Source of the DNA: Candidatus Magasanikiibacteriota bacterium
GTDB lineage: Bacteria; Patescibacteriota; Patescibacteriia; Magasanikbacterales; UBA922
Direction of reading: 5' to 3'
NCBI GenBank assembly: GCA_041674805.1
Contig: JBAYVA010000002.1
Span: 83,234-147,233, forward strand
DNA length: 64,000 nucleotides
The position numbers were made by a program, and so were the translations under genes. The notes beneath the pieces were generated by a model. It saw only the letters and a list, made by a program, of their open reading frames with translations, ran no database searches and was not told the origin of the DNA. Below, piece by piece: positions 2,195 to 40,244 of this stretch. Position 1 is the stretch's first letter. Each line of letters opens with the position of its first letter.

Positions 2195-3892
2195 CTACTT
2201 TAAAAAGCTAATTCCTGAGGTAAATCTTAGTTGCATTTCATCTTTTTGACTTTTACGAAGATCAAAAAATGTCTTATTTGTCAAAGGTTTATTTTGAATA
2301 ATATCAGAAATCCACTGTCCTCCCAACAAGTGTGTCATCATCACATAATTGGCTCCAGCTTCATATAAATCATCCAAATAAGTATTATGATAAAGATTAC
2401 CAATAATAATAACTTTTTTATTTATTTTTCTAATGTGTTTGAACAAAATGATTTGATCATCAGGATTAGGTATTGTACAAACTATCATTTCTGCTTTTTC
2501 CAAAGGCAAACTTTCCAAAAATTCTATATCACTAACATCCCCAAAAAATGCCGGAATATGTCTATTTTTCAAAACTTTTACTGCTTCAGGATTATAATCC
2601 ACTACCGCATATTTCATATTTTTTTCAGCAAAACCTTCACACACTTTCCAACCAATACGATGATAACCAAAAACCCAATTAGTAAAAATTTCTTCATTTT
2701 TTTCTATTTGTTTGTGCTTATCATGTCCGAACAAATTGAAGACTGGACGCAAAAATTCAAAAATCTTCTCACTATAAGTAATAAGATAAGAAGATACAAT
2801 AATAGTTGTCAAAGCGACAATAGTAAAAATTTCTAATTCTTTGCCAACCACATGTCCCAAATTTCTTCCAACAATCAAAAGCACAAAACCAAATTCACTG
2901 ACCTGAGCCGCTGTCACACCAGCCAAAAAACTATTTCTTCTTGTGAATTTTTGTGAACGAAAAGCCCAATACAAAACAAAAGGATTACCAATCAAAATAA
3001 ATAAAGATAAAATCAAACCATTTATCCAAATTCCATCCAAATTAGTAAGTGACATTTCACTACCCAAAATAATAAAAAATATCACAATAAAAAAATCACG
3101 CAAAGGTTTGATACGACTAGAAATTTCTGATTGAAAAGGCGAAGAACCAAGAGTAAGACCAGCTACTATAGCACCAATTTCCAAAGAAAAACCCAACCAA
3201 TATAACAAACTAGAAATACCAAAACACCAAGTCAAAGTAAAAATAAAAAGAAATTCACCAGACTTCGCCACACTTTGTAAAATTTTTGGAATAATATATC
3301 TCGCTGTCAGTCCAACAAATCCCAACAAAATAAATATCTTACCAACTAATTCTCCTACTTCTACCCAAATATTATTTCCTTGACCTAATGATGTCACCAT
3401 CATCATAATAAAAATAGCCACAATATCTTGTACTACCATGAGACCAATAGTATATCTACCATAAACACTTTCAGTGTCTTTTTTGTCTGCCAATAATTTT
3501 ACAATAATAATAGTACTAGAGAAAGTCAAAGCCAAAGCCAAATAAATAGCTGACGATGCTGAAAATTTCATGGCAAGAAGTATCAAAAAGCCAAGAGAAG
3601 CTGTAAATATTACTTGGGCCATACCTGTAATGACCGCAACTTTACCAATACTCTTGATATGTTGAATATTGAGACTTAAACCTACCACAAACAAAAGCAA
3701 CACAACACCAAATTCAGCCAAAGCATCAAAAGTATGTCCACCTTCTTGCAACAAATTCAAAAACATCGGACCAGCAATAATGCCAGCAATCAGATAAGAA
3801 ATTAAAAGTGGTTGTTTTAACAAACGCAATACAAAAGCTACAGAAACAGTAATACCAAGCAAAGCAGAAATTTGAAGAAAAATATTATCCAT
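2195..3892 (-). CDS. Cation:proton antiporter (CPA2/Kef-type) with C-terminal RCK/TrkA-N domain
   Basis: 565-aa ORF with about 12 predicted TM helices in a Na+/H+ exchanger-like layout, followed by a soluble Rossmann-like tail (VFGYHRIGWKV..VVDYNPE..FGDVSD). Confidence 0.8.
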   Translation of the reverse strand: MDNIFLQISALLGITVSVAFVLRLLKQPLLISYLIAGIIAGPMFLNLLQEGGHTFDALAEFGVVLLLFVVGLSLNIQHIKSIGKVAVITGMAQVIFTASLGFLILLAMKFSASSAIYLALALTFSSTIIIVKLLADKKDTESVYGRYTIGLMVVQDIVAIFIMMMVTSLGQGNNIWVEVGELVGKIFILLGFVGLTARYIIPKILQSVAKSGEFLFIFTLTWCFGISSLLYWLGFSLEIGAIVAGLTLGSSPFQSEISSRIKPLRDFFIVIFFIILGSEMSLTNLDGIWINGLILSLFILIGNPFVLYWAFRSQKFTRRNSFLAGVTAAQVSEFGFVLLIVGRNLGHVVGKELEIFTIVALTTIIVSSYLITYSEKIFEFLRPVFNLFGHDKHKQIEKNEEIFTNWVFGYHRIGWKVCEGFAEKNMKYAVVDYNPEAVKVLKNRHIPAFFGDVSDIEFLESLPLEKAEMIVCTIPNPDDQIILFKHIRKINKKVIIIGNLYHNTYLDDLYEAGANYVMMTHLLGGQWISDIIQNKPLTNKTFFDLRKSQKDEMQLRFTSGISFLK

Positions 3893-3953: not shown

Positions 3954-6900
3954 TTATTTAGAAATAAATTTTTTAATCAATTTTTTTATTTTTGAAAAAA
4001 TATTTTCTCCATTACTTTTCAAAAAAAGTCCAAACAAAATAGCAGTAAAACCACCAGCTGTAGCTGTTAAATATTTTTCAACAATATCCGCGTTGTCTTG
4101 CTCTTTGGCTTTTTCTTTTTTTGTTACCAAATCTTCACTAACACCTGTTTTAATAATATCATTTTGATCACGTGGCAACAATTGATATTCTGTTTTTGTT
4201 TGATGAAGTAGTCCAGTAATACTTACTAAATTACCTTCTTCAAATATATCTTTTTTTATACCAGCTCCTCTCTTAAAATATACTTTTATTTCCTCAGTTC
4301 CATCGTCTACATACATATAAGAACTTTTTATTTCTGTAATTTCACCACTTACCAAAATAAGACTACCTTCATATTGTTCCCCCACATCTTCTAATTCCAA
4401 GACTCTACCAATTGGTAATTCACTATGTCCCAATTTTTTTATATCATTTTTTTCTTTTAATTTTATTCTAGTTTCACCAGAAGTTTCTGTAATTTCTCCC
4501 ATAACTTCTATTTTGTCTCCCCTTTTTAAATCTGGAAAATCTTTACTAAACATATAAATTTGTACACCAGCATTTTCAGAAACTATATAAAAAATTTGTG
4601 TACCCATTATACCTGGTTCTACTGCTACTGTACCTGTCACACTAATCATATCACCCAAATCTTCATCACGTATTTTTTCTAAACTAGTGTTTATAACTGC
4701 TTTCACTGAATTACTCTTACTTTTTACTATTTTAACGGATTTTACTTCTGTTATTTCTTCTACAAAATTTACCTCACCAGGGCTAATAATTTTATTCCAA
4801 ATCCAGTTACCTTCACTATTACGAACATAAGAGGCTCCTTCTATTACATCATCAAATCTTACTTCCATTATAATAGTTCCATCAGGATACAAAAGACGCA
4901 CAGAATCACTAGTGTTATTCAAAGCCAACTTTGTATCTTGGCGACCAAAGACTTTATATTCTTTAGCTTTTATCAAAGTATTAGCTCCTACAGTATAAGC
5001 TTTTGATCCACCTTCTTCATCATCAATTTTTAAACCCGAAATATCAACATCTTCTTCTGTAGGATTGTGAATTTCAATAAATTCAGTAGTATCTGAACCT
5101 ACTGGATTTGGCAAAATCTCTGAAATGTACAAAACAGATATATCACTTGTTCCAGCATAACCACCCACAAAATCTTGAGACAATTTTACACTTAAAACAA
5201 CATCCTTTTTACTTTCATTACTACCATCACTTACTGTCAAAGATACAGTATAAACTCCTTGTTGCAAAAATTTATGTTCTACACTCGCGCCATCTTCATC
5301 AGTCCCATCAGCAAAATCCCAATGAAATTTTAAATCTTTTCCTTCTGGACTAACAGTATCAGAAGCATCAAATTTCACCCATTCATTTACAGCTACTTCG
5401 GTATCTACATCAAGTGCAATAATTGGTGCTGCACTTTTACCTTCTACTATGTTTTTGCTTCCAGCAGTAATTTTACTACTCCATACCCAAGTAGCATCAT
5501 CTTGCCTCACATAACTAAAAGAATCACTAGCACTACCAGGATAACTTACACTATTTACGATTGCCCCATTTGGAGAAAATAATTTTACTTCATCTCCTCC
5601 TGTATTATTTAGAGCTATTTGTGTCATAGTTCTTTTGAAAACAATGAATTCATTTGCTTTCAATACACCTTGTTTTATTGTATATTTTTTCTTACTAGAA
5701 TCAGATAATTGCCAATCTTTCAAATCAATAGTTTCTGTACCTTTATTCCAAATTTCAATAAACTCATCATCACTATCACTACCTGGAGGATTTGGATAAA
5801 TTTCATTCAAAACTATGTTTGTTTGCAAAGAAAAAATTTCTTGTTTTTCCAAATCTTCAGCTTTTAAAGATAAAACATTTTTTTGTCCCCTAGTAATAGT
5901 ATCTGTAATTATAAAATCATAATAATCATTATCAGCATCTTGTCCATCTGTTTTTCTTATCAACGAATATGGATCACTTGCCACAGCAGCATTATCATAA
6001 GTATTACCATCATCCCAATTGCCATAAGTAACTTTATCTATTTCTTTTTTACTAGGATCTAATAATAACAAAATATCACCAGCATTATTGAGACTTCCTT
6101 TTGGTTCCTCAATTACAAAAAAACCTTTAGGCAAAATAGTCCCTGTCAAAATCGTAATTGTTTCACTACCATCTTCCAAAGACCAATCATTTAAATCAAT
6201 AATTTCTGAAGTGTTGTTATATATTTCTACGAATTCTTTTTCTCCATCACTAGGATCAGAAACCAACTCGTTTATGACCAAATCTCGTGCATTATAATTT
6301 TTTGTTGTTACTTCAGAACTAGAAGACGAACCTCCACCAGAACTAGAAACTGGAATATTTTTAATAATATTGACTTCACCTGGCGTTGGTTCTGTGGTAA
6401 TAGAAAAATCATTTTTATTATTTCCCGTGTTTTGACCATCCACGATTCTCGCCACAGAATAAGGATCACTGTGTGCAGGAGCGTTGTCTGAAATATCTTC
6501 ATCAAAAAAATCTATCCAATCACCAAAACGCACTGTGTCTATCAAATTACCAGAATTATCATACAAAAAAATACCATCACCATCATTGTTCAATTTACTA
6601 GACAAAATATTTACTCGCAAAAAACTTTTTGTTTCCAAAATATTATCCAAAACCAAAATTTTTTTTGTGCTACTACTACTTTTGTCACCTTCGTGCACTT
6701 CCCAATCTTTCAAATCAATAGTAGAGGTAGAATTATTATATATTTCTACCCATTCATTTTCACCAGCCACAGGATCACTTACAAATTCATTAATAACTAT
6801 TTCATAATTAGGAATAGTATTTGTCGTGGTAGTAGTACTTTCAAAATTTTCTACTATACTAAAGTTAAAAATGTCACTTGCAAAATCATTTTTATCATCT

Positions 6901-17239: not shown

Positions 17240-17268
17240 TGTGGACAACTTGTGGATTCTGTGGATAA
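17240..17268. promoter_or_regulatory. Cluster of three adjacent DnaA boxes upstream of dnaA (oriC / dnaA autoregulation)
   Basis: tgtggacaa (17240-17248), tgtggattc (17251-17259) and a perfect tgtggataa (17260-17268). A further ggtggataa lies at 17492-17500. Confidence 0.75.
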
Positions 17269-17670
17269 TTTGGCTAAAATACTTTATATTTTTTATTAAA
17301 AAATTATGAACAGTTTGGAGATTTTTACTTTTTTTATTTTAGAAAAATAGATTTTTTGTTAATAGCGTTTTTTTGCTAATTTTAGTAAAAAATGAATAAA
17401 AATAGTTGATTGCTTTATTATAATAACACATCCTTCACTCGTAGCAAAAACAAAGGTCAGAAATGTTTTTTTACCAATGTTTTTGTCTAAAGGTGGATAA
17501 TTACTACGAAATAATACAATTTATACCCTATTTTTGATTTTATTAGGATTTGTAGATTCATTAATTTTGATTAATGTGGTCAATTTATTAGATTTTTGTG
17601 TTTTTTGAAGTTGAAAATTTTTTTTATGTAAGTTAGTTTTTCTTATTATTGTCTAAGTTTTTATCAATAC

Positions 17671-19915: not shown

Positions 19916-21283
19916 TTAATGATTATGACCTGTATGATCTTCGTGATCTTCTTCTGCCATGGCATGTCCGTGAGAATGTTCTTCATGCTTATGTCTTTCA
20001 CCTTCTACTAATTTATCTGCCAAAAAGTTTACAACTTTTTTATTTAATAGCATGTTGTGAATAGAATCAAGTACTTCTGGTTTTTTCAAATTTTCTAGAT
20101 ACTCAGCAGTTTCTTTGTAGTATTCACGTAGATTTTTTACTTCAGCATCTAATTCATCTTTGGAAATAGTTAGACTGTGTGCTAGAGCTACTTCACGAGA
20201 AAGCAATGAAGCTTTGGCTCTATCAGTTGCTTTGTTTCTAAAATCTTCTTGTAATTCTTTTTCATTTTTTTTGATGTCTTGTAAATATTGTTCAATTGTT
20301 ACACCATGTTTTTCTAAATCATGTTGTAATTCATAAAACATTTTTTTGAGTTCAGCTTCTACTAACACTTCTGGAATTTCTTCAAATTTAGTTTCTTTGA
20401 TCAATGTTTCAAACATTTCTATTTCAGCTATTTCATCAGCTTTGTGTTCAGCTTCGTGAGTCAAATTTTCTTTGATTAGGTCTTTTAATTTGTCTAAACT
20501 TTCTTGTCCTAATACTTTGGCAAAAGCATCGTCTGCTTTTGGTATTTCTCTACCAAAAACTTCTTTTACTTTTACTTTGAATTTGCCAGTTTTACCAGCT
20601 AATTGTGCACTATAATAATTTTTTGGAAAAGGTAAATCAAATTCTTTTTCATCACCTTTTTCTAAACCAATCAAAGCATCATTGAAACCAGGGATATGTT
20701 GATGATCTTCTGATAAATAAACATTGTAATCAATAGCCTGTCCACCTTCTACTGGTACTCCATCCAAAAACAAATTCATATCTATAACGATCTTGTCTTC
20801 TTTTGTTGCTTTGCCTTTTTTGATTACTTCTTTTGCTTGCATTTTTAATAAATTATCAATAGTTTCATTTACTGATTGATCATTTACTTCTTTGACTGTT
20901 CTTTTTATTTTGATTGATTCTAATTTTGGTAATTCAACTTTTGGTAACAAAGCTACTTTGGCAGAATAAACTAAATCATTAGCAGGTGCCATTTTTTGAA
21001 TATTGATATCTGGCATGCCAATAGTATTTAATTTTTCAGCTGTTACAGTTTGATAAAAACTGTCTTGGATAATATCTTCCAAAGCTTCTTGCAAAAGTTT
21101 CATTTCACCTACTTCTTGTTTGACCATTTCAAAAGGAGCTTTGCCTTTGCGGAAACCTCTAATAGCTACACGATTTGAAATAGTAGTAGCTGCTTTTTCT
21201 AAATGTTTTTGATAATCTTTTGGACTAACTGTAATAGTAAGTTCAATTTGTGATTTTTCTAATTTTTCTATTTTGTGTTCCAT
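19916..21283 (-). CDS. tig: Trigger factor with a histidine-rich C-terminal tail
   Basis: 455 aa. Ribosome-binding signature GFRKGKAP and a central FKBP-like region. The final about 28 aa are GERHKHEEHSHGHAMAEEDHEDHTGHNH. Confidence 0.9.
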   Translation of the reverse strand: MEHKIEKLEKSQIELTITVSPKDYQKHLEKAATTISNRVAIRGFRKGKAPFEMVKQEVGEMKLLQEALEDIIQDSFYQTVTAEKLNTIGMPDINIQKMAPANDLVYSAKVALLPKVELPKLESIKIKRTVKEVNDQSVNETIDNLLKMQAKEVIKKGKATKEDKIVIDMNLFLDGVPVEGGQAIDYNVYLSEDHQHIPGFNDALIGLEKGDEKEFDLPFPKNYYSAQLAGKTGKFKVKVKEVFGREIPKADDAFAKVLGQESLDKLKDLIKENLTHEAEHKADEIAEIEMFETLIKETKFEEIPEVLVEAELKKMFYELQHDLEKHGVTIEQYLQDIKKNEKELQEDFRNKATDRAKASLLSREVALAHSLTISKDELDAEVKNLREYYKETAEYLENLKKPEVLDSIHNMLLNKKVVNFLADKLVEGERHKHEEHSHGHAMAEEDHEDHTGHNH

Positions 21284-21298
21284 ACTTTATTTTTTAAA

Positions 21299-21337
21299 AC
21301 GCGGAATTACGCGGACTTTTACGCGGATAGACGCGGA
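21299..21337. repeat. Four direct copies of ACGCGGA (spacing 10, 12, 10 nt) in the tig leader
   Basis: Copies at 21299-21305, 21309-21315, 21321-21327 and 21331-21337. They read TCCGCGT on the tig coding strand, and the nearest copy is 16 nt from the start codon. Confidence 0.85.
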
Positions 21338-21382
21338 AAGTGACCAAAATAATGCGTTTATTTTTGATTAAAAAGTGGCTAT

Positions 21383-21411
21383 AATATAGCTTGTTTTGCT
21401 TGAAATGTCAA
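21383..21411 (-). promoter_or_regulatory. Promoter of tig
   Basis: On the minus strand: TTGACA (21411-21406), 17-nt spacer, TATATT (21388-21383). Confidence 0.65.
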
Positions 21412-21417
21412 CTGTTG

Positions 21418-21460
21418 GCAAGCAGAGTAAGCAAAGTAAGCAGAATAGGCATAATAAGTT
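21418..21460. repeat. 43-bp element (copy A) upstream of the tig promoter; an inverted copy lies at 24970-25012
   Basis: The reverse complement aacttattatgcctattctgcttactttgcttactctgcttgc matches copy B at 39 of 43 positions. It contains three tandem YTGCTTRC-type units. Confidence 0.85.
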
Positions 21461-21461
21461 T

Positions 21462-21490
21462 TTGACGAGGATATTTTTTGGTGTTATTGT
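21462..21490 (+). promoter_or_regulatory. Candidate promoter of the GC-rich mini-gene
   Basis: TTGACG (21462-21467), 17-nt spacer, TATTGT (21485-21490). Confidence 0.45.
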
Positions 21491-21508
21491 TTGTTGCGGA
21501 GGTGAGAA

Positions 21509-21646
21509 ATGAAAGAATTTCTTGAGACCCTCATCGGCATTCTCGCTTCCCTTTTTTGGGGAGCGGTGTTCGCCGTTTTCCTCTTTGATGAGGAAGCGGC
21601 GGCGACCTTCCTGCGAGGGGAGGTCAAATATGTCACGGGGGTTTGA
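21509..21646 (+). CDS. 45-aa single-TM peptide, GC3-rich (candidate foreign mini-gene)
   Basis: Not in the ORF track. GGAGGTG Shine-Dalgarno 5 nt upstream of the ATG. Translation is MKEFLETLIGILASLFWGAVFAVFLFDEEAAATFLRGEVKYVTGV. Codons end mostly in G/C, unlike surrounding genes. Confidence 0.4.
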   Translation: MKEFLETLIGILASLFWGAVFAVFLFDEEAAATFLRGEVKYVTGV

Positions 21647-21696
21647 AAAGGAGGGCGGTCCGGGCGTACGTGCGCGGACCAAACTCATAAATTAAG

Positions 21697-21729
21697 ACCG
21701 TTTTTCTTTATTGAAAGACGGTTTTTTTT
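21697..21729 (+). terminator. Rho-independent terminator after the 45-aa mini-gene
   Basis: Stem accgtttttc / gaaagacggt (one mismatch), loop tttatt, then a T8 run. Confidence 0.6.
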
Positions 21730-21784
21730 GACAGTTCATTTTTTTGTAGTAGTTTTTAAATATCTTCCACGGAAGGAGGTGGTT

Positions 21785-21976
21785 GTGGGTGGTGAGAGCC
21801 CCTTTCATACGCTGATCCAGTGTCCAAACTGTAGGCGTTATACGGACTCAAGAGAGTTCGAAACGCTGACAAAAGATGGGGGAGAGTACAAAAAGTGCCC
21901 ATATTGTGGGTGGTCACATCTTGTGTCTATGCCCTCGGCGTACTTTAAGTATAGGAGGGACGATGGAATTAATTAG
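21785..21976 (+). CDS. 63-aa zinc-ribbon protein (CPNC..x21..CPYC), GC3-rich
   Basis: GTG start 6 nt after AGGAGG (21773-21778). Translation is VGGESPFHTLIQCPNCRRYTDSREFETLTKDGGEYKKCPYCGWSHLVSMPSAYFKYRRDDGIN. The track ORF 21728-21976 has an implausible AT-rich N-terminal extension from TTG. Confidence 0.5.
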   Translation: MGGESPFHTLIQCPNCRRYTDSREFETLTKDGGEYKKCPYCGWSHLVSMPSAYFKYRRDDGIN

Positions 21977-21996
21977 GTAAGGGGTGGGGAAGGTGG

Positions 21997-22034
21997 ATGC
22001 GCGCGACTTCTACGAAAGTGGTTGTCGTGCGCGT
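21997..22034 (+). other. GC-rich 11-bp stem-loop downstream of the zinc-ribbon gene
   Basis: atgcgcgcgac (21997-22007) pairs with gtcgtgcgcgt (22024-22034, including two G:U pairs) around a 16-nt loop. No T-run follows directly. Confidence 0.55.
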
Positions 22035-22065
22035 TCGTTCAAATAAAAAATAAAATTTTAAAATT

Positions 22066-22097
22066 AAAAAAACACTCTCAAATTGAGAGTGTTTTTT
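22066..22097. terminator. Bidirectional terminator shared by the GC-rich island and hppA
   Basis: Stem acactctca / tgagagtgt, loop aat, flanked by A- and T-runs. Confidence 0.75.
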
Positions 22098-22119
22098 ATT
22101 TCAGTTTAAATCAATGCTT

Positions 22120-24108
22120 TTATTTTAACAAACCAATTATGAGCAAAGCCACAATGTTAGCCACTTTGATCATAGGATTGATTGCAGGGCCAGCTGTGTC
22201 CTTGTAAGGGTCACCTACAGTGTCACCAGTGACAGCAGCTTGATGTGCAAAACTTCCTTTACCACCGTGATTGCCTTCTTCAATATATTTTTTTGCATTG
22301 TCCCAAGCACCACCACCAGTAGTCATAGAAATTGCGACGAATAGACCGGTGATAATAGTACCAACAAGCAAACCACCAAGAGCAGCAGCACCCAAGAAAT
22401 AACCAACTAAGATTGGAGCTACAACAGGGATAACTGCTGGTAAAATCATTTGACCAATAGCACCTTTAGTTACTATATCTACTGTTTTGGCATAGTCAGG
22501 TTTGGCTTGACCTTCCATAATACCTTTGATTTCACGGAATTGTCTGCGAACTTCTTCTACTACACTACCAGCTACTTTACCTACTGATTGCATTAGTAAT
22601 GAACCAAATAAGTAAGGAAGCAAACCACCAATAAATAAACCTGTCAAAACTTTTGGATCATCAATTCTAAATACTGTACTGATACCTTCTGCATCAAGTT
22701 TGTGTGTGAAATCTGCAAATAATACTAGAGCAGCTAGAGCAGCTGAAGCGATAGCATAACCTTTGGTAACAGCTTTTGTGGTGTTGCCAACAGCATCTAG
22801 CGGATCTGTAACATTTCTAACATCTTCTCCAAGTTCTGCCATTTCGGCGATACCACCAGCATTGTCAGTGATAGGTCCATAAGCGTCGATTGCTACGACA
22901 ATACCAGTAAGAGAAAGCATAGACATAGCAGCGATAGCTACTCCGTAAAGTCCCATGAAGTGATAAGCTACAAGCATACCGGCGACAATAGCCAATACTG
23001 GCAAAGCAGTTGATTTCATGGATACTGCTAGACCTGTGATGACATTGGTACCATGACCTGTTTCACTAGATTTTGCAATTTGTTTTACAGGAGCATATTT
23101 GGTTGAAGTATAATATTCAGTAATCCAAACCATAGCACCAGTAAGTACGATACCAACTACAGTTGTCCAGAAAACATCAGCAGTAGTCGCATTTAAATCA
23201 GCAGCGTAGTGTCTACTCAAGAAAAAGAAACCAATTATTGAGAAAAGGCCAGACATTATTAGACCTTTGTACAAAGCTCCCATGATGTTGTTCTTTTTGC
23301 CAAGTCTGATGAAGAAACTTCCAAAGATTGAAGCAATAATAGAAATAGCTCCAAGCATAAGAGGAAACATAATACCTGCAGTAGTACCAACAAAAGTAAG
23401 TCCACCAAGTACCATCGCAGCGACAGCTGTTACTGCATAAGTTTCAAACAAGTCAGCAGCCATACCAGCACAGTCACCGACGTTGTCACCGACGTTGTCA
23501 GCAATTACAGCTGGATTACGAGGATCATCTTCTGGAATACCTTTTTCTACTTTTCCAACTAAATCAGCTCCGACGTCAGCAGCTTTGGTAAAAATACCAC
23601 CACCGATACGAGCGAATATTGAGATAAGACTACCACCGAAAGCTAATCCAATAAGAGCATCTAGGTCTTTGGTCAATAAATAAAAACCAGCAACTCCCAA
23701 AAGTCCAAGACCAACTACGAGTAAACCAGTAACAGTACCACCTTTGACAGCTACATCTAAAGCAGCTTTTAAACCTTTTTTGGCAGCTTCAGTAGTACGA
23801 ACATTGGCTTTGACAGATACATTCATACCTACAAAACCAGCAATTCCAGAGAAAAGAGCTCCAACTAGGAAACCTAGTCCAGTCATCCAGCCTAAAGTTA
23901 GTCCAAGAACCAAGAAAACAAGGATAGCTACATAAGAAATAGTCTTATATTGGCGAGCCAAATAAGCTTTGGCACCTTCTTGGATAGCGCGAGCAATATT
24001 TTGCATGCGTTCTGATCCTGTAGGCTGTTTGTTTATCCATTGAATTAAAAAGATACCGTAACCAATCGCCAAAACGGCTGGTCCGATAAGCAGTAGTGTT
24101 GTTAGCAT
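22120..24108 (-). CDS. hppA: Membrane-bound ion-translocating inorganic pyrophosphatase
   Basis: 662 aa, polytopic. Contains GGG(I/L)[35 protein letters not shown] and GDTVGDP motifs. Codon third positions are A/T-biased like host genes. Confidence 0.95.
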
Positions 24109-24969: not shown

Positions 24970-25012
24970 AACTTATTCTGCCTATTTTGCTTACTTTGCT
25001 TATTTTGCTTGC
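24970..25012. repeat. 43-bp element (copy B) upstream of polA
   Basis: aacttattctgcctattttgcttactttgcttattttgcttgc, followed by tatgtTACAAT. Inverted relative to copy A (39/43 identity). Confidence 0.85.
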
Positions 25013-25042
25013 TATGTTACAATATACTGGATAATAAAAATT

Positions 25043-40079: not shown

Positions 40080-40153
40080 GGGCCTTTAGCTCAGCTGGCT
40101 AGAGCGCTTCCATGGCATGGAAGAGGTCATGGGTTCAAGTCCCATAAGGTCCA
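40080..40153 (+). tRNA. tRNA-Ala (anticodon GGC)
   Basis: GGGCCTT acceptor with G3:U70, GCTC/GAGC D-stem, anticodon loop ATGGCAT, T-loop TTCAAGT. Confidence 0.9.
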
Positions 40154-40170
40154 CAATTAAATAAAGCAAA

Positions 40171-40244
40171 GGGCCGTTTCCCGATTCATCGGGAGGCTAG
40201 AGTGCCCGGACGGGAGGTCGCTGGTTCGAATCCAGTAAGGTCCA
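40171..40244 (+). ncRNA. tRNA-Ala-like RNA lacking a canonical anticodon arm
   Basis: 74 nt. Acceptor GGGCCGT / AAGGTCC with G3:U70 (one G:A mismatch at 6:67) and discriminator A. The T-arm GCTGG-TTCGAAT-CCAGT is perfect. The interior CCCGATTCATCGGGAGGCTAGAGTGCCCGGACGGG gives no 5-bp stem with a 7-nt U33 loop. A terminator hairpin follows (about 40250-40280). Confidence 0.5.

Follow-up and report, generated by a model that had tools for sequence, protein, structure and literature searches.

Candidate moron-like small-protein cassettes between tig and hppA in a Candidatus Magasanikiibacteriota genome

INTRODUCTION

Phage morons of the HK97/HK022 type are small genes that carry their own promoter and terminator and have an odd GC content (Cumby et al. 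2012, PMC3594210). Here, we describe two adjacent units built on a comparable plan, units 1 and 2, in the spacer between tig (trigger factor) and hppA (H+-pyrophosphatase) of a Candidatus Magasanikiibacteriota bacterium. The DNA analyzed, referred to as the window, is a 64,000-nucleotide (nt) stretch of contig JBAYVA010000002.1 (assembly GCA_041674805.1, forward-strand positions 83,234 to 147,233), and all positions below are counted from its first letter. As in phage morons, each cassette is a single small gene with its own promoter and terminator, signals that are conserved in relatives. The cassettes also stand out from their surroundings in GC content (48 to 53% against 30.7% in the window), and relatives that are otherwise collinear may have or lack them. 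Unlike morons, the cassettes are flanked by tig, hppA, and the dnaA region, with no phage or prophage, and phage collections contain no DNA or protein match to them. Moreover, the cassettes share 5' and 3' modules and stand in tandem arrays, and unit 1 is conserved across a clade. On balance, it appears probable that the two units are independent, monocistronic small-protein genes belonging to a lineage-specific array of self-contained cassettes at the tig-hppA junction.

A second point of reference is offered by type I toxin-antitoxin loci, including hok/sok, fst, ldr, ibs/sib, and zor/orz (Fozo et al. 2010, PMC2887945). By analogy, morons seem closest to the cassettes in logic and type I toxins in gene type. 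Shared with the latter are unannotated hydrophobic peptides of <70 amino acids (aa) in intergenic DNA, tandem copies within one spacer, a copy number that varies between strains, and a strongly and conservedly folded mRNA in the case of unit 1. However, an antisense promoter or RNA was not detected, and the Shine-Dalgarno sequence (SD) is predicted to be exposed rather than sequestered. The peptides are acidic and match no sequence family, and one cassette encodes what looks like a soluble zinc ribbon.

Dual-function small RNAs, such as SgrS/SgrT, RNAIII/hld, and SR1/SR1P, are also of interest. The unit 1 transcript resembles them as a structured RNA of approximately 230 nt with an open reading frame (ORF) of approximately 45 codons, in which selection on both fold and frame is visible. 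It differs in lacking homology to them and any known target-pairing region or target, and its structured domain coincides with the coding region. Small single-pass membrane proteins that modulate larger ones, including AcrZ, KdpF, MgtS, and CydX, have a size and a hydrophobic helix similar to those of the unit 1 product, and ORF1 of unit 1 adjoins a membrane pump gene, hppA. However, unit 1 is convergent with hppA and not cotranscribed with it, it is absent from two related loci in which hppA is kept (L014 and L026), and its ORF is fast evolving and encodes an acidic product.

RESULTS

A GC-rich island with strong Shine-Dalgarno sequences in an AT-rich genome

The window has a GC content of 30.7% (150-nt windows: mean, 0.307; standard deviation, 0.062), and its most GC-rich part is an island at 21464 to 22048, in which two blocks peak at 0.607 (21464 to 21746) and 0.513 (21759 to 22048). 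This agrees with a first-pass annotation, made from the sequence alone, that had singled out two GC-rich blocks at this position. Only two other stretches in the 64 kb exceed 0.48 GC, one within hppA and one at a tRNA locus. The two small ORFs that had been reported as absent from, or mis-started in, a list of open reading frames are present, with lengths of 45 aa (ORF1) and 63 aa (ORF2). In the identical ENA contig k141_2249070 (186.8 kb), no gene is called between hppA and tig. The genes dnaA, rpmH, rnpA, and yidD lie 2.7 to 5 kb past tig, and the island is approximately 4 kb from dnaA.

The GC content at third codon positions (GC3) equals 0.62 in ORF1 and 0.52 in ORF2, in contrast to 0.16 in tig and 0.24 in hppA, which upholds the earlier description of G/C-rich third positions. 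However, the enrichment is not specific to these positions. By codon position, GC is 0.61/0.36/0.62 in ORF1 and flat (0.44/0.48/0.52) in ORF2, and because GC is not phased, the codon periodicity previously offered as an argument for coding falls away. ORF1 carries a G1/T2 codon signature.

The motif GGAGGTG occurs six times in the 64 kb, and only the two island copies lie upstream of an ORF at SD distance. The SD match spans 8 nt for ORF1 and 9 nt for ORF2. In the 41 host ORFs with a length of at least 150 aa, the stretch within 21 nt of the start never contains a match of 6 nt or more and contains a 5-nt match once; their upstream regions are nearly pure A/T. The host genome is essentially SD-less, and the contrast with the island is greater than the first-pass annotation had stated in calling strong GGAGG-type SDs rare among the neighbours. 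High GC and GC3 and strong SDs, where host genes have none, give the island the foreign-looking signals attributed to it.

As had been supposed, the island is not a known structured RNA. Rfam 15 gave no gathering-score match in the window or in the related loci L001, L002, and L003, and permissive filters yielded only chance matches driven by terminators, far below threshold. A blastn search of the island against phage and plasmid DNA returned a single 43-nt AT-rich chance match and otherwise nothing, and tblastn of both peptides against phage collections returned no significant match. Viral contigs scanned with a 16-mer of the 3' module described below gave 15 matches, all without hairpin context and thus ascribed to chance.

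The tig-hppA junction of relatives carries a variable number of cassettes

Trigger-factor searches retrieved three genome loci and 22 metagenome loci (designated L with a number). The closest relatives, with tig 77 to 79% identical, are Candidatus Magasanikbacteria. The order hppA-spacer-tig is widely kept among relatives, and the spacer varies (Table 1), with the number of cassettes in a genome ranging from 0 to 4 or more. Because its content ranges from empty to multiple cassettes, the tig-hppA junction is a recurrent insertion site. It is empty in the more distant relatives L014 and L026, an absence for which the first-pass annotation had proposed to look. The same architecture was found at the same locus in independent assemblies from NCBI, JGI, ENA, and Logan.

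The cassettes follow a common plan, consisting of a promoter, GGAGGTG, a small ORF, GGAGG(G) just after the stop codon, 3' stems, (C)ATAAATTAA, and an intrinsic terminator. The 3' module, present in all unit 1 versions and in unit 2 of L002 and L006, comprises a lower stem of 3 bp, a 3+3 internal loop with AAA on its 3' side, and a GC-rich upper stem. In unit 1 of the window, GAG (21651 to 21653) pairs with CTC (21684 to 21686) below the internal loop, and the upper stem, GGTCCG/CGGACC (21657 to 21680), is the same in L012 and L006. Compensatory changes of the upper stem are seen in L003 (GGTTCAAGT/ACTTGAACC) and in unit 2 of L006 (GGTCTTTGC-UUCG-GCAGAGACC). The stem reads GGGTCT/AGACCC in unit 2 of L002, and the lower stem varies from GAG:CUC to GGG:CCC. 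Across the window and all collected loci, this pattern is found in tig-hppA cassettes only, besides a few isolated matches (L017, L019, and window position 6125) judged to be due to chance. The GC-rich hairpin that the first-pass annotation had seen after each ORF was confirmed at 21657 to 21680 for unit 1, and the second one lies at 21995 to 22036. Its assignment of a promoter of its own to ORF1 (TTGACG-17-TATTGT) also stands. However, the first hairpin, real as it is, is not the terminator, which lies at 21694 to 21729.

Tandem genes followed by palindromes recall integron gene cassettes and CALIN (clusters of attC sites lacking integron-integrases) arrays, which consist of promoterless genes with attC cores (RYYYAAC...GTTRRRY), in integrons under a common Pc promoter and with intI adjacent. 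The cassettes of the tig-hppA junction are likewise tandem, short, variable, and mostly orphan ORFs with strain-variable content, each followed by an imperfect palindrome. However, every one of them has its own conserved promoter and terminator. No integron integrase is known near the island (no systematic search for it was made). Integron cassettes were rejected given these promoters and the lack of attC R''/R' cores in seven 3' modules aligned by inspection, whose stems, GGTC.../...GACC, run into AAAC and lack a matching inverted core.

Two further kinds of insertion were observed in relatives. In L002 (2807 to 3601, + strand), L006 (1379 to 2314, + strand), and L008 to L011, an ORF of 264 to 311 aa with approximately 60% GC, in genomes of 33 to 42% GC, sits between the tig promoter and unit 1. 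A promoter and a terminator of its own serve this ORF, and a duplicate of the tig -35 region (GTCAATGNNCACGAATCTTAAC) accompanies it. By eye only, its product is GT-A glycosyltransferase-like; Pfam, NCBIfam, and PHROG gave no match. In L019 (3160 to 3732, minus strand of the locus), a more distant relative, a Mu Gam-like gene is flanked by long GC-rich inverted repeats.

Cassettes are gained and exchanged between close relatives

Relative to L012, the window contains an insertion at 21696 to 22066, equal to the unit 1 terminator plus unit 2 and bounded by CTCATAAATTAA and the hppA terminator AAAAAACACTCTC. In L012, the terminator shared with hppA lies directly 3' of the unit 1 3' module. In L006, a unit 1 terminator identical to that of the window is followed by TTGACA; this terminator is also common to L002.

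At the nucleotide level, the window and L012 are 94% identical in hppA and 80% identical in tig, only 0.8 kb apart. Within the island, identity is 93% in the unit 1 promoter, 74% in ORF1, and 94% in the 3' module. Because of this difference between the flanks, and because tig of L012 is nearer to that of L002 and L006 than to that of the window, a recombination breakpoint is placed within the island on comparative grounds. A comparison of window positions 19916 to 24108 with L012 shows a pattern suggesting that the hppA side was recently recombined or transferred.

L002 and L006 have tig genes that are 95% identical and very different unit 1 alleles (0.72 synonymous differences per site [pS]). 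Their units 2 are homologous DNA from promoter to terminator, with indels that are not multiples of three. These comparisons suggest that cassettes are rapidly duplicated, swapped, and reshaped and that not every part of an ORF is constrained as protein.

Unit 1 combines a conserved small ORF with a selected mRNA fold

Six versions of unit 1 were compared, namely, those of the window, L012, L006, L007, the L002 group, and the L003 group. In all six, the motif TTTGACGANNANNNTTTT stands at a constant distance from the ATG. The sequence TTTGACGA...TATTGT is found at -47 from the ATG, followed by an invariant GGAGGTG and, 3 to 6 nt further on, by the start codon, behind spacers that differ between versions (AGAA, CGT, TGCC, AAAC, TGGAAT, and GGCC). 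The ORF has 43 to 45 codons in all six, with its stop just ahead of the 3' module. The other peptides are 33 to 53% identical to that of the window, and the ratio of nonsynonymous to synonymous differences per site (pN/pS) in the ORF1 frame is 0.52 to 0.78. This frame contains no stops, and the other two sense frames contain 1 to 7 per pair. The probability of an open frame by chance is 0.04 to 0.20 per allele and approximately 1e-5 jointly when five lineages are treated as independent.

A hydrophobic stretch (maximum Kyte-Doolittle value over 19 residues of at least 1.96) was found in 5/6 alleles, with a value of 2.46 for ORF1, and the peptides are net acidic in all alleles but one. The AlphaFold2 model of ORF1 shows helices at residues 2 to 25 and 28 to 43 separated by a turn, with a predicted local distance difference test (pLDDT) score of 88. 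Family profiles built from three and then six sequences recovered only L002- and L006-type peptides, suggesting a family that is either confined to this clade or rarely called. From these sequence features, ORF1 is very likely translated. Positive selection on ORF1 cannot be claimed, because a recombination mosaic equally explains its divergence relative to hppA.

Two other interpretations of ORF1 were rejected. The sequence AIIGI(F/L)A resembles a type IV pilin-like N terminus; the spacing from Glu to Gly is wrong, and Pfam N_methyl gave no match. The much faster divergence of ORF1 than of its flanks, and the GC hairpin behind it, prompted a comparison with targets of diversity-generating retroelements, in which a template repeat near the variable region differs from it at adenines and a reverse transcriptase is present. 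However, the 64-kb window contains no template-repeat copy of 21440 to 22110 beyond AT-rich noise, and the changes in ORF1 are not confined to particular sites (a reverse transcriptase was not searched for separately).

The predicted unit 1 transcript is exceptionally well folded in the window (z-score, -7.4), L012 (-7.3), and L006 (-6.5), with lower values in L002 (-3.5) and L003 (-2.25); the ORF1 coding sequence of the window on its own reaches -5.5. In the window, L012, and L006, which are the GC-rich alleles, codons 6 to 11 pair with the last codons of the ORF and close a multihelix domain. Both the predicted minimum free energy (MFE) and centroid folds of these three alleles leave GGAGGUG unpaired and place the AUG within a small hairpin loop or right next to it. 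Across an alignment of five sequences, pairing holds in 87.8% of cells. Of the 41 pairs, 16 are changed on both sides, compared to 7.2 ± 1.9 in column shuffles (0/500 reach the observed value) and 2 to 7 in slid-partner controls, a comparison that is favoured by the derivation of the structure from the same alignment. Synonymous-codon shuffles, which keep the protein and codon usage, provide a test independent of the alignment. The native coding sequence is better folded than its shuffles in 4/6 alleles, with z-scores of -4.15 for the window (0/300), -3.2 for L012, -2.6 for L002, and -2.1 for L006; the test was not significant for L003.

The inner hairpins of the window differ from those of L012 and L006, with the elements CCUUCCU and GAGGA switching pairing partners. 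Because inner elements pair with different partners, the conserved property seems to be fold stability more than one exact fold. The GC richness of unit 1 is at least partly due to selection for mRNA structure. A GC3 excess (roughly 0.4 to 0.6) persists in the clade-wide gene and is therefore not simply un-ameliorated foreign DNA. The alternative of coding versus structural RNA, on which the first-pass annotation had relied, is a false dichotomy for unit 1, an mRNA with conserved, selected secondary structure.

Unit 2 places an orphan zinc-ribbon-like ORF behind a conserved promoter

The promoter-like element of unit 2 was not flagged by the consensus scan because its -10 sequence is weak. In L002 and L006, unit 2 is headed by a conserved TTGACA-16/17-TAGTTT; downstream of this promoter, the window sequence is unrelated to theirs. 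The -35 sequence is overlapped by the T-run of the unit 1 terminator. The 3' element matches the unit 1 3' module in position and make-up, and no sequence homologue is available for it.

The chance probability of an open frame of this length is 0.021. A word-indexed search of 5.8 billion clusters found no homologue of ORF2. A full HMMER search over 1.84 billion representatives gave six matches, all spurious, since they are large repeat proteins aligned without the cysteines. Pfam matches were all subthreshold (DUF7575, 19.6 bits with a cutoff of 28.5; Zn_ribbon_3, 18.9 bits with a cutoff of 27), as were those in NCBIfam and PHROGs, all zinc ribbons, with the weak PHROG matches being small phage zinc-ribbon families, one of them Lar-like. 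ORF2 belongs to no named zinc-ribbon family at curated threshold.

The CPNC-x21-CPYC motif noted in the first pass is present, with cysteines at residues 13, 16, 38, and 41. In a single-sequence AlphaFold2 model (pLDDT, 71; core, 75 to 85) with five beta strands, the two CxxC pairs (13/16 and 38/41) fall in loops, each joining two predicted strands, and their spacing is that of C4 zinc ribbons, in which two CxxC knuckles on beta hairpins stand about 15 to 25 residues apart. The best PDB fold matches are zinc ribbons with nonsignificant E values (ZifS, 8yoz; E value, 0.12). The coding sequence is mildly structured (z-score, -2.45; synonymous test not significant), and the z-score of -6.4 for the whole of unit 2 is accounted for by the 3' hairpin and terminator. 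ORF2 is probably a real gene, judging from its sequence and predicted fold.

Table 1 Features of the tig-hppA spacer in the window and spacer content in related loci
Feature	Position or length	Strand	Description
Unit 1	21462-21729	+	In the tig-hppA spacer
Unit 1 promoter	21462-21490	+	-35 TTGACG (21462-21467), 17-nt spacer with TG, -10 TATTGT (21485-21490); found by promoter scan
Unit 1 Shine-Dalgarno sequence	21498-21504	+	GGAGGTG, 4 nt ahead of ATG
ORF1	21509-21646	+	45-aa hydrophobic acidic peptide, MKEFLETLIGILASLFWGAVFAVFLFDEEAAATFLRGEVKYVTGV; coding region also a multihelix RNA fold
Unit 1 3' module	21650-21695	+	GGAGGG, lower stem, internal loop, upper stem, CATAAATTAA
Unit 1 intrinsic terminator	21694-21729	+	13-bp stem, then T8; predicted from fold
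Unit 2	21728-22097	+	Own promoter-like element and terminator
Unit 2 promoter-like element	21728-21755	+	TTGACA (21728-21733), 16 nt, TAGTTT (21750-21755)
Unit 2 Shine-Dalgarno sequence	21773-21781	+	AAGGAGGTG, with GGAGGTG at 21775-21781; 3 nt ahead of GTG
ORF2	21785-21976	+	63-aa C4 zinc-ribbon-like orphan, GTG start, CPNC-x21-CPYC
Unit 2 3' element	21980-22036	+	G-rich run GGGGTGGGGAAGGTGG, then 13-bp GC-rich hairpin (21995-22036) with inner GAAA stem-loop
Bidirectional intrinsic terminator	22067-22097		Common to unit 2 (+) and hppA (-)
L026 spacer	167 nt		tig promoter and terminator only
L014 spacer	208 nt		tig promoter and terminator only
L003/L013 spacer	463 nt		Unit 1
L012 spacer	541 nt		Unit 1
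Window spacer	836 nt		Units 1 and 2
L019 spacer	1,036 nt		GC-rich Mu Gam-like gene (PF07352, 6.9e-31) with own promoter and SD
L002, L008, L009, and L011 spacer	1,862 nt		60% GC gene, unit 1, different unit 2
L006 spacer	>2,568 nt		60% GC gene and at least 4 cassettes

Repeats and other elements near the locus

The leader of tig, which lies on the minus strand, contains four copies of ACGCGGA with a spacing of 10 to 12 nt (window positions 21299 to 21337), present as UCCGCGU in the tig 5' leader immediately ahead of the start of the gene. The repeats are kept with variation in L002, L003, L006, and L012 and look like a candidate binding-site array for a trigger factor regulator. Between the divergent tig and unit 1 promoters (21418 to 21457, + strand), a 9-nt tandem repeat, TAAGCA(G/A)A(G/A), is present in four to five copies. 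An inverted second copy is found at 24971 to 25013 (minus strand), upstream of a 214-aa gene beyond hppA, and the tandem repeat also occurs in L003 (3149 to 3194) and L007. Other short repeats occupy the same place elsewhere, including TATGACATTTCTA twice in L001, CACGAAT twice in L002, CACGAG three times in L006, and an inverted repeat in L012. In some relatives only, a GC-rich insert of approximately 40 nt (...CCTCCTTC...CGTAGAGCTACGGCGG...) is found in the tig leader or spacer (L012, approximately 3557 to 3596; L007, approximately 353 to 392; L002, approximately 2665 to 2700). L007 additionally has a CCTGCCTGCCGGCAGGCAGG palindrome, and these sequences look like small GC-rich mobile or repeat elements.

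In L020 (3480 to 4000) and L023 (3505 to 4000), the AT-rich hppA-tig spacer is full of TTATCCACA-like (DnaA-box-like) motifs and may be a replication origin. In the window, perfect and near-perfect DnaA boxes cluster at 17240 to 17500, by dnaA. Further away, a GC-rich tRNA-like sequence (40171 to 40244, + strand) directly follows tRNA-Ala (40080 to 40154) and has the same 3' end. It scores 18.2 bits against the Rfam tRNA model (gathering threshold, 29), is not called by ARAGORN, and could be a degenerate or unusual tRNA.

DISCUSSION

The best reading of the island, and one that we regard as somewhat better than evenly supported, is that of moron-like cassettes, self-expressing and encoding small proteins, at a recombination hotspot near oriC. 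It builds on the observed cassette architecture, its conservation and variability in relatives, the RNA structure signal, and the absence of homologues. Each unit would be transcribed on its own and translated via its strong SD, which may make up for the high GC content and folding of the 5' region, given that host start regions are A/U-rich and SD-less. Unit 1 would yield a very stably folded mRNA of approximately 230 nt with an exposed SD. Its product would be a fast-evolving helix-turn-helix peptide, most likely inserted into the membrane, and the 3' module and overall folding may stabilize the message. Unit 2 would represent a strain-specific zinc-ribbon ORF behind a promoter that elsewhere serves different ORFs. 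Cassettes would be gained, lost, duplicated, and swapped by recombination at the conserved flanks. Because the locus is dispensable in relatives, their cellular role is presumably accessory and nonessential, possibly membrane active or derived from a mobile element.

Several observations weigh against this reading. Substitutions are spread nearly equally over the three codon positions of ORF1 (e.g., 14/9/15), a modest coding signal. The antisense frame that shares its wobble positions gives pN/pS values close to those of ORF1, and, owing to the scarcity of A in the sequence, two frames on the antisense strand are open as well. The comparison was limited to five or six distinct unit 1 alleles. 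The coding status of ORF2 depends on its SD, the 2% open-frame chance, the cysteine pattern, and a single-sequence AlphaFold2 model, with no comparator. The C-terminal tails of unit 2 in L006 and L002 (the 3' halves) are read in different frames, and this frameshift suggests that some cassette tails lack protein constraint. In addition, this reading does not account for the role of the conserved 3' module with its GGAGG, and the strong, conserved RNA structure of unit 1 fits a function at the RNA level as well.

That last point leads to the rather improbable view that unit 1 serves first of all as a structured regulatory RNA (approximately 230 nt), with an incidental or secondary ORF, as in SgrS/SgrT, and with GGAGG motifs at its ends acting at the RNA level. 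High GC in an AT-rich genome is a classic signature of structural RNA. The extreme folding z-scores, the covariation above both controls, and the superiority to synonymous shuffles all fit this view. So do the ORF segments most conserved at the DNA level, ATCATCGGCATT and AATGTCACGGGGGTTTGA, which pair with each other in the closing helices and in which synonymous changes between the window, L012, and L006 are few or absent. Furthermore, pN/pS is only mildly below 1, and in an SD-less host GGAGG need not be a ribosome-binding site. However, the ATG is kept 3 to 6 nt past GGAGGTG even though the spacer varies, and the stop codon always falls just ahead of the 3' module. The frame is open in the AT-richer L002 and L003 (chance, 0.04 to 0.07), and the hydrophobic profile is kept in L007 despite DNA saturated with changes. 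The inner hairpins of the window are not those of L012 and L006, the structure signal fades in L003 (z-score, -2.25; synonymous test not significant), and Rfam gives no match.

The folded message has also to be considered under a type I toxin-antitoxin-like arrangement, in which unit 1 and the paralogous transmembrane-peptide cassettes would encode membrane-damaging peptides controlled by mRNA folding and an RNA antitoxin. The acidic tail after the transmembrane segment is reminiscent of Fst. The peptide is shorter than 70 aa with a hydrophobic helix and a polar tail, lies in intergenic DNA, and was missed by annotation; transmembrane-peptide cassettes stand in tandem in L002 and L006; and the highly structured, covarying mRNA is similar to the hok type. 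These are the features by which Fozo et al. 2010 (PMC2887945) searched. We nonetheless think this arrangement unlikely. A sigma-70-like promoter on the opposite strand is conserved in none of the six unit 1 versions, and the sole minus-strand promoter in 21200 to 22200 is that of tig, results that bear on an antisense RNA and not on a trans-encoded one. The MFE folds of three alleles predict a single-stranded SD and an AUG in a small hairpin loop, and the near-consensus promoter suggests constitutive translation and not silencing. The peptides carry a net negative charge (-3 to -6) and hardly any flanking positive charges, Pfam and NCBIfam toxin families give no match, and unit 2 of the window appears to encode a soluble zinc ribbon, which is not toxin-like. 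The first-pass annotation had joined both units into a horizontally acquired two-gene module, a toxin-like transmembrane peptide with a zinc-ribbon partner. Adjacency on the same strand, foreign-looking composition with strong SDs in both units, and the weak likeness of ORF2 to families of small zinc-ribbon proteins from phages, one of them a Lar-like PHROG, speak for a recent acquisition of this kind. The comparative data largely refute it and leave it very improbable. Each unit has separate transcription signals, both promoter and terminator. In L012 and L003, unit 1 stands alone, in L002 and L006 unrelated ORFs come after it, and ORF2 was found in no other genome or metagenome searched. Unit 1 is common to the whole clade at the same locus, with alleles swapped by recombination, and is thus not a recent arrival. 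An assembly chimera or contamination, with GC-rich reads misjoined into an AT-rich contig of the candidate phyla radiation (CPR), would account for an abrupt change in composition within approximately 600 nt. Its probability is practically negligible, given that the GC-rich parts alternate with AT-rich promoters and terminators, that the window is identical to the 186.8-kb ENA contig, and that the cassette architecture recurs at the same locus in independent assemblies from several projects.

Self-expressing small-protein cassettes at a recombination hotspot therefore remain our preferred reading. From the earlier proposal of foreign protein-coding DNA, it retains the probable protein mini-genes missed by annotation and gives up the periodicity on which that proposal was based, the module, and its recency. 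A bolder and decidedly tentative extension, which we hold to be more doubtful than not by some distance, is that the junction is a dedicated oriC-proximal slot array of swappable, self-expressing cassettes with an undescribed recombination and expression logic, and that unit 1 is the founding example of a gene under dual RNA and peptide constraint. Conserved 5' (promoter and SD) and 3' RNA modules would then frame small ORFs that are captured, duplicated, frameshifted, and replaced. If true, such a slot array would parallel integron cassettes or phage morons in function.

The genomes of CPR bacteria are tiny and hold much unexplained strain-specific gene content, and small proteins are systematically missed, with none called at this locus. 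The cassette format, with a strong SD in an SD-less genome, a folded GC-rich mRNA, a 3' element, and its own transcription signals, provides a search signature for CPR metagenomes. For screens of noncoding RNAs, the island is a caution that a GC-rich island in an AT-rich genome is not always a noncoding RNA. The locus also offers a test case for translation initiation in genomes otherwise without Shine-Dalgarno sequences, and as a natural system it could show how ultrasmall symbionts acquire, express, and turn over new small genes.

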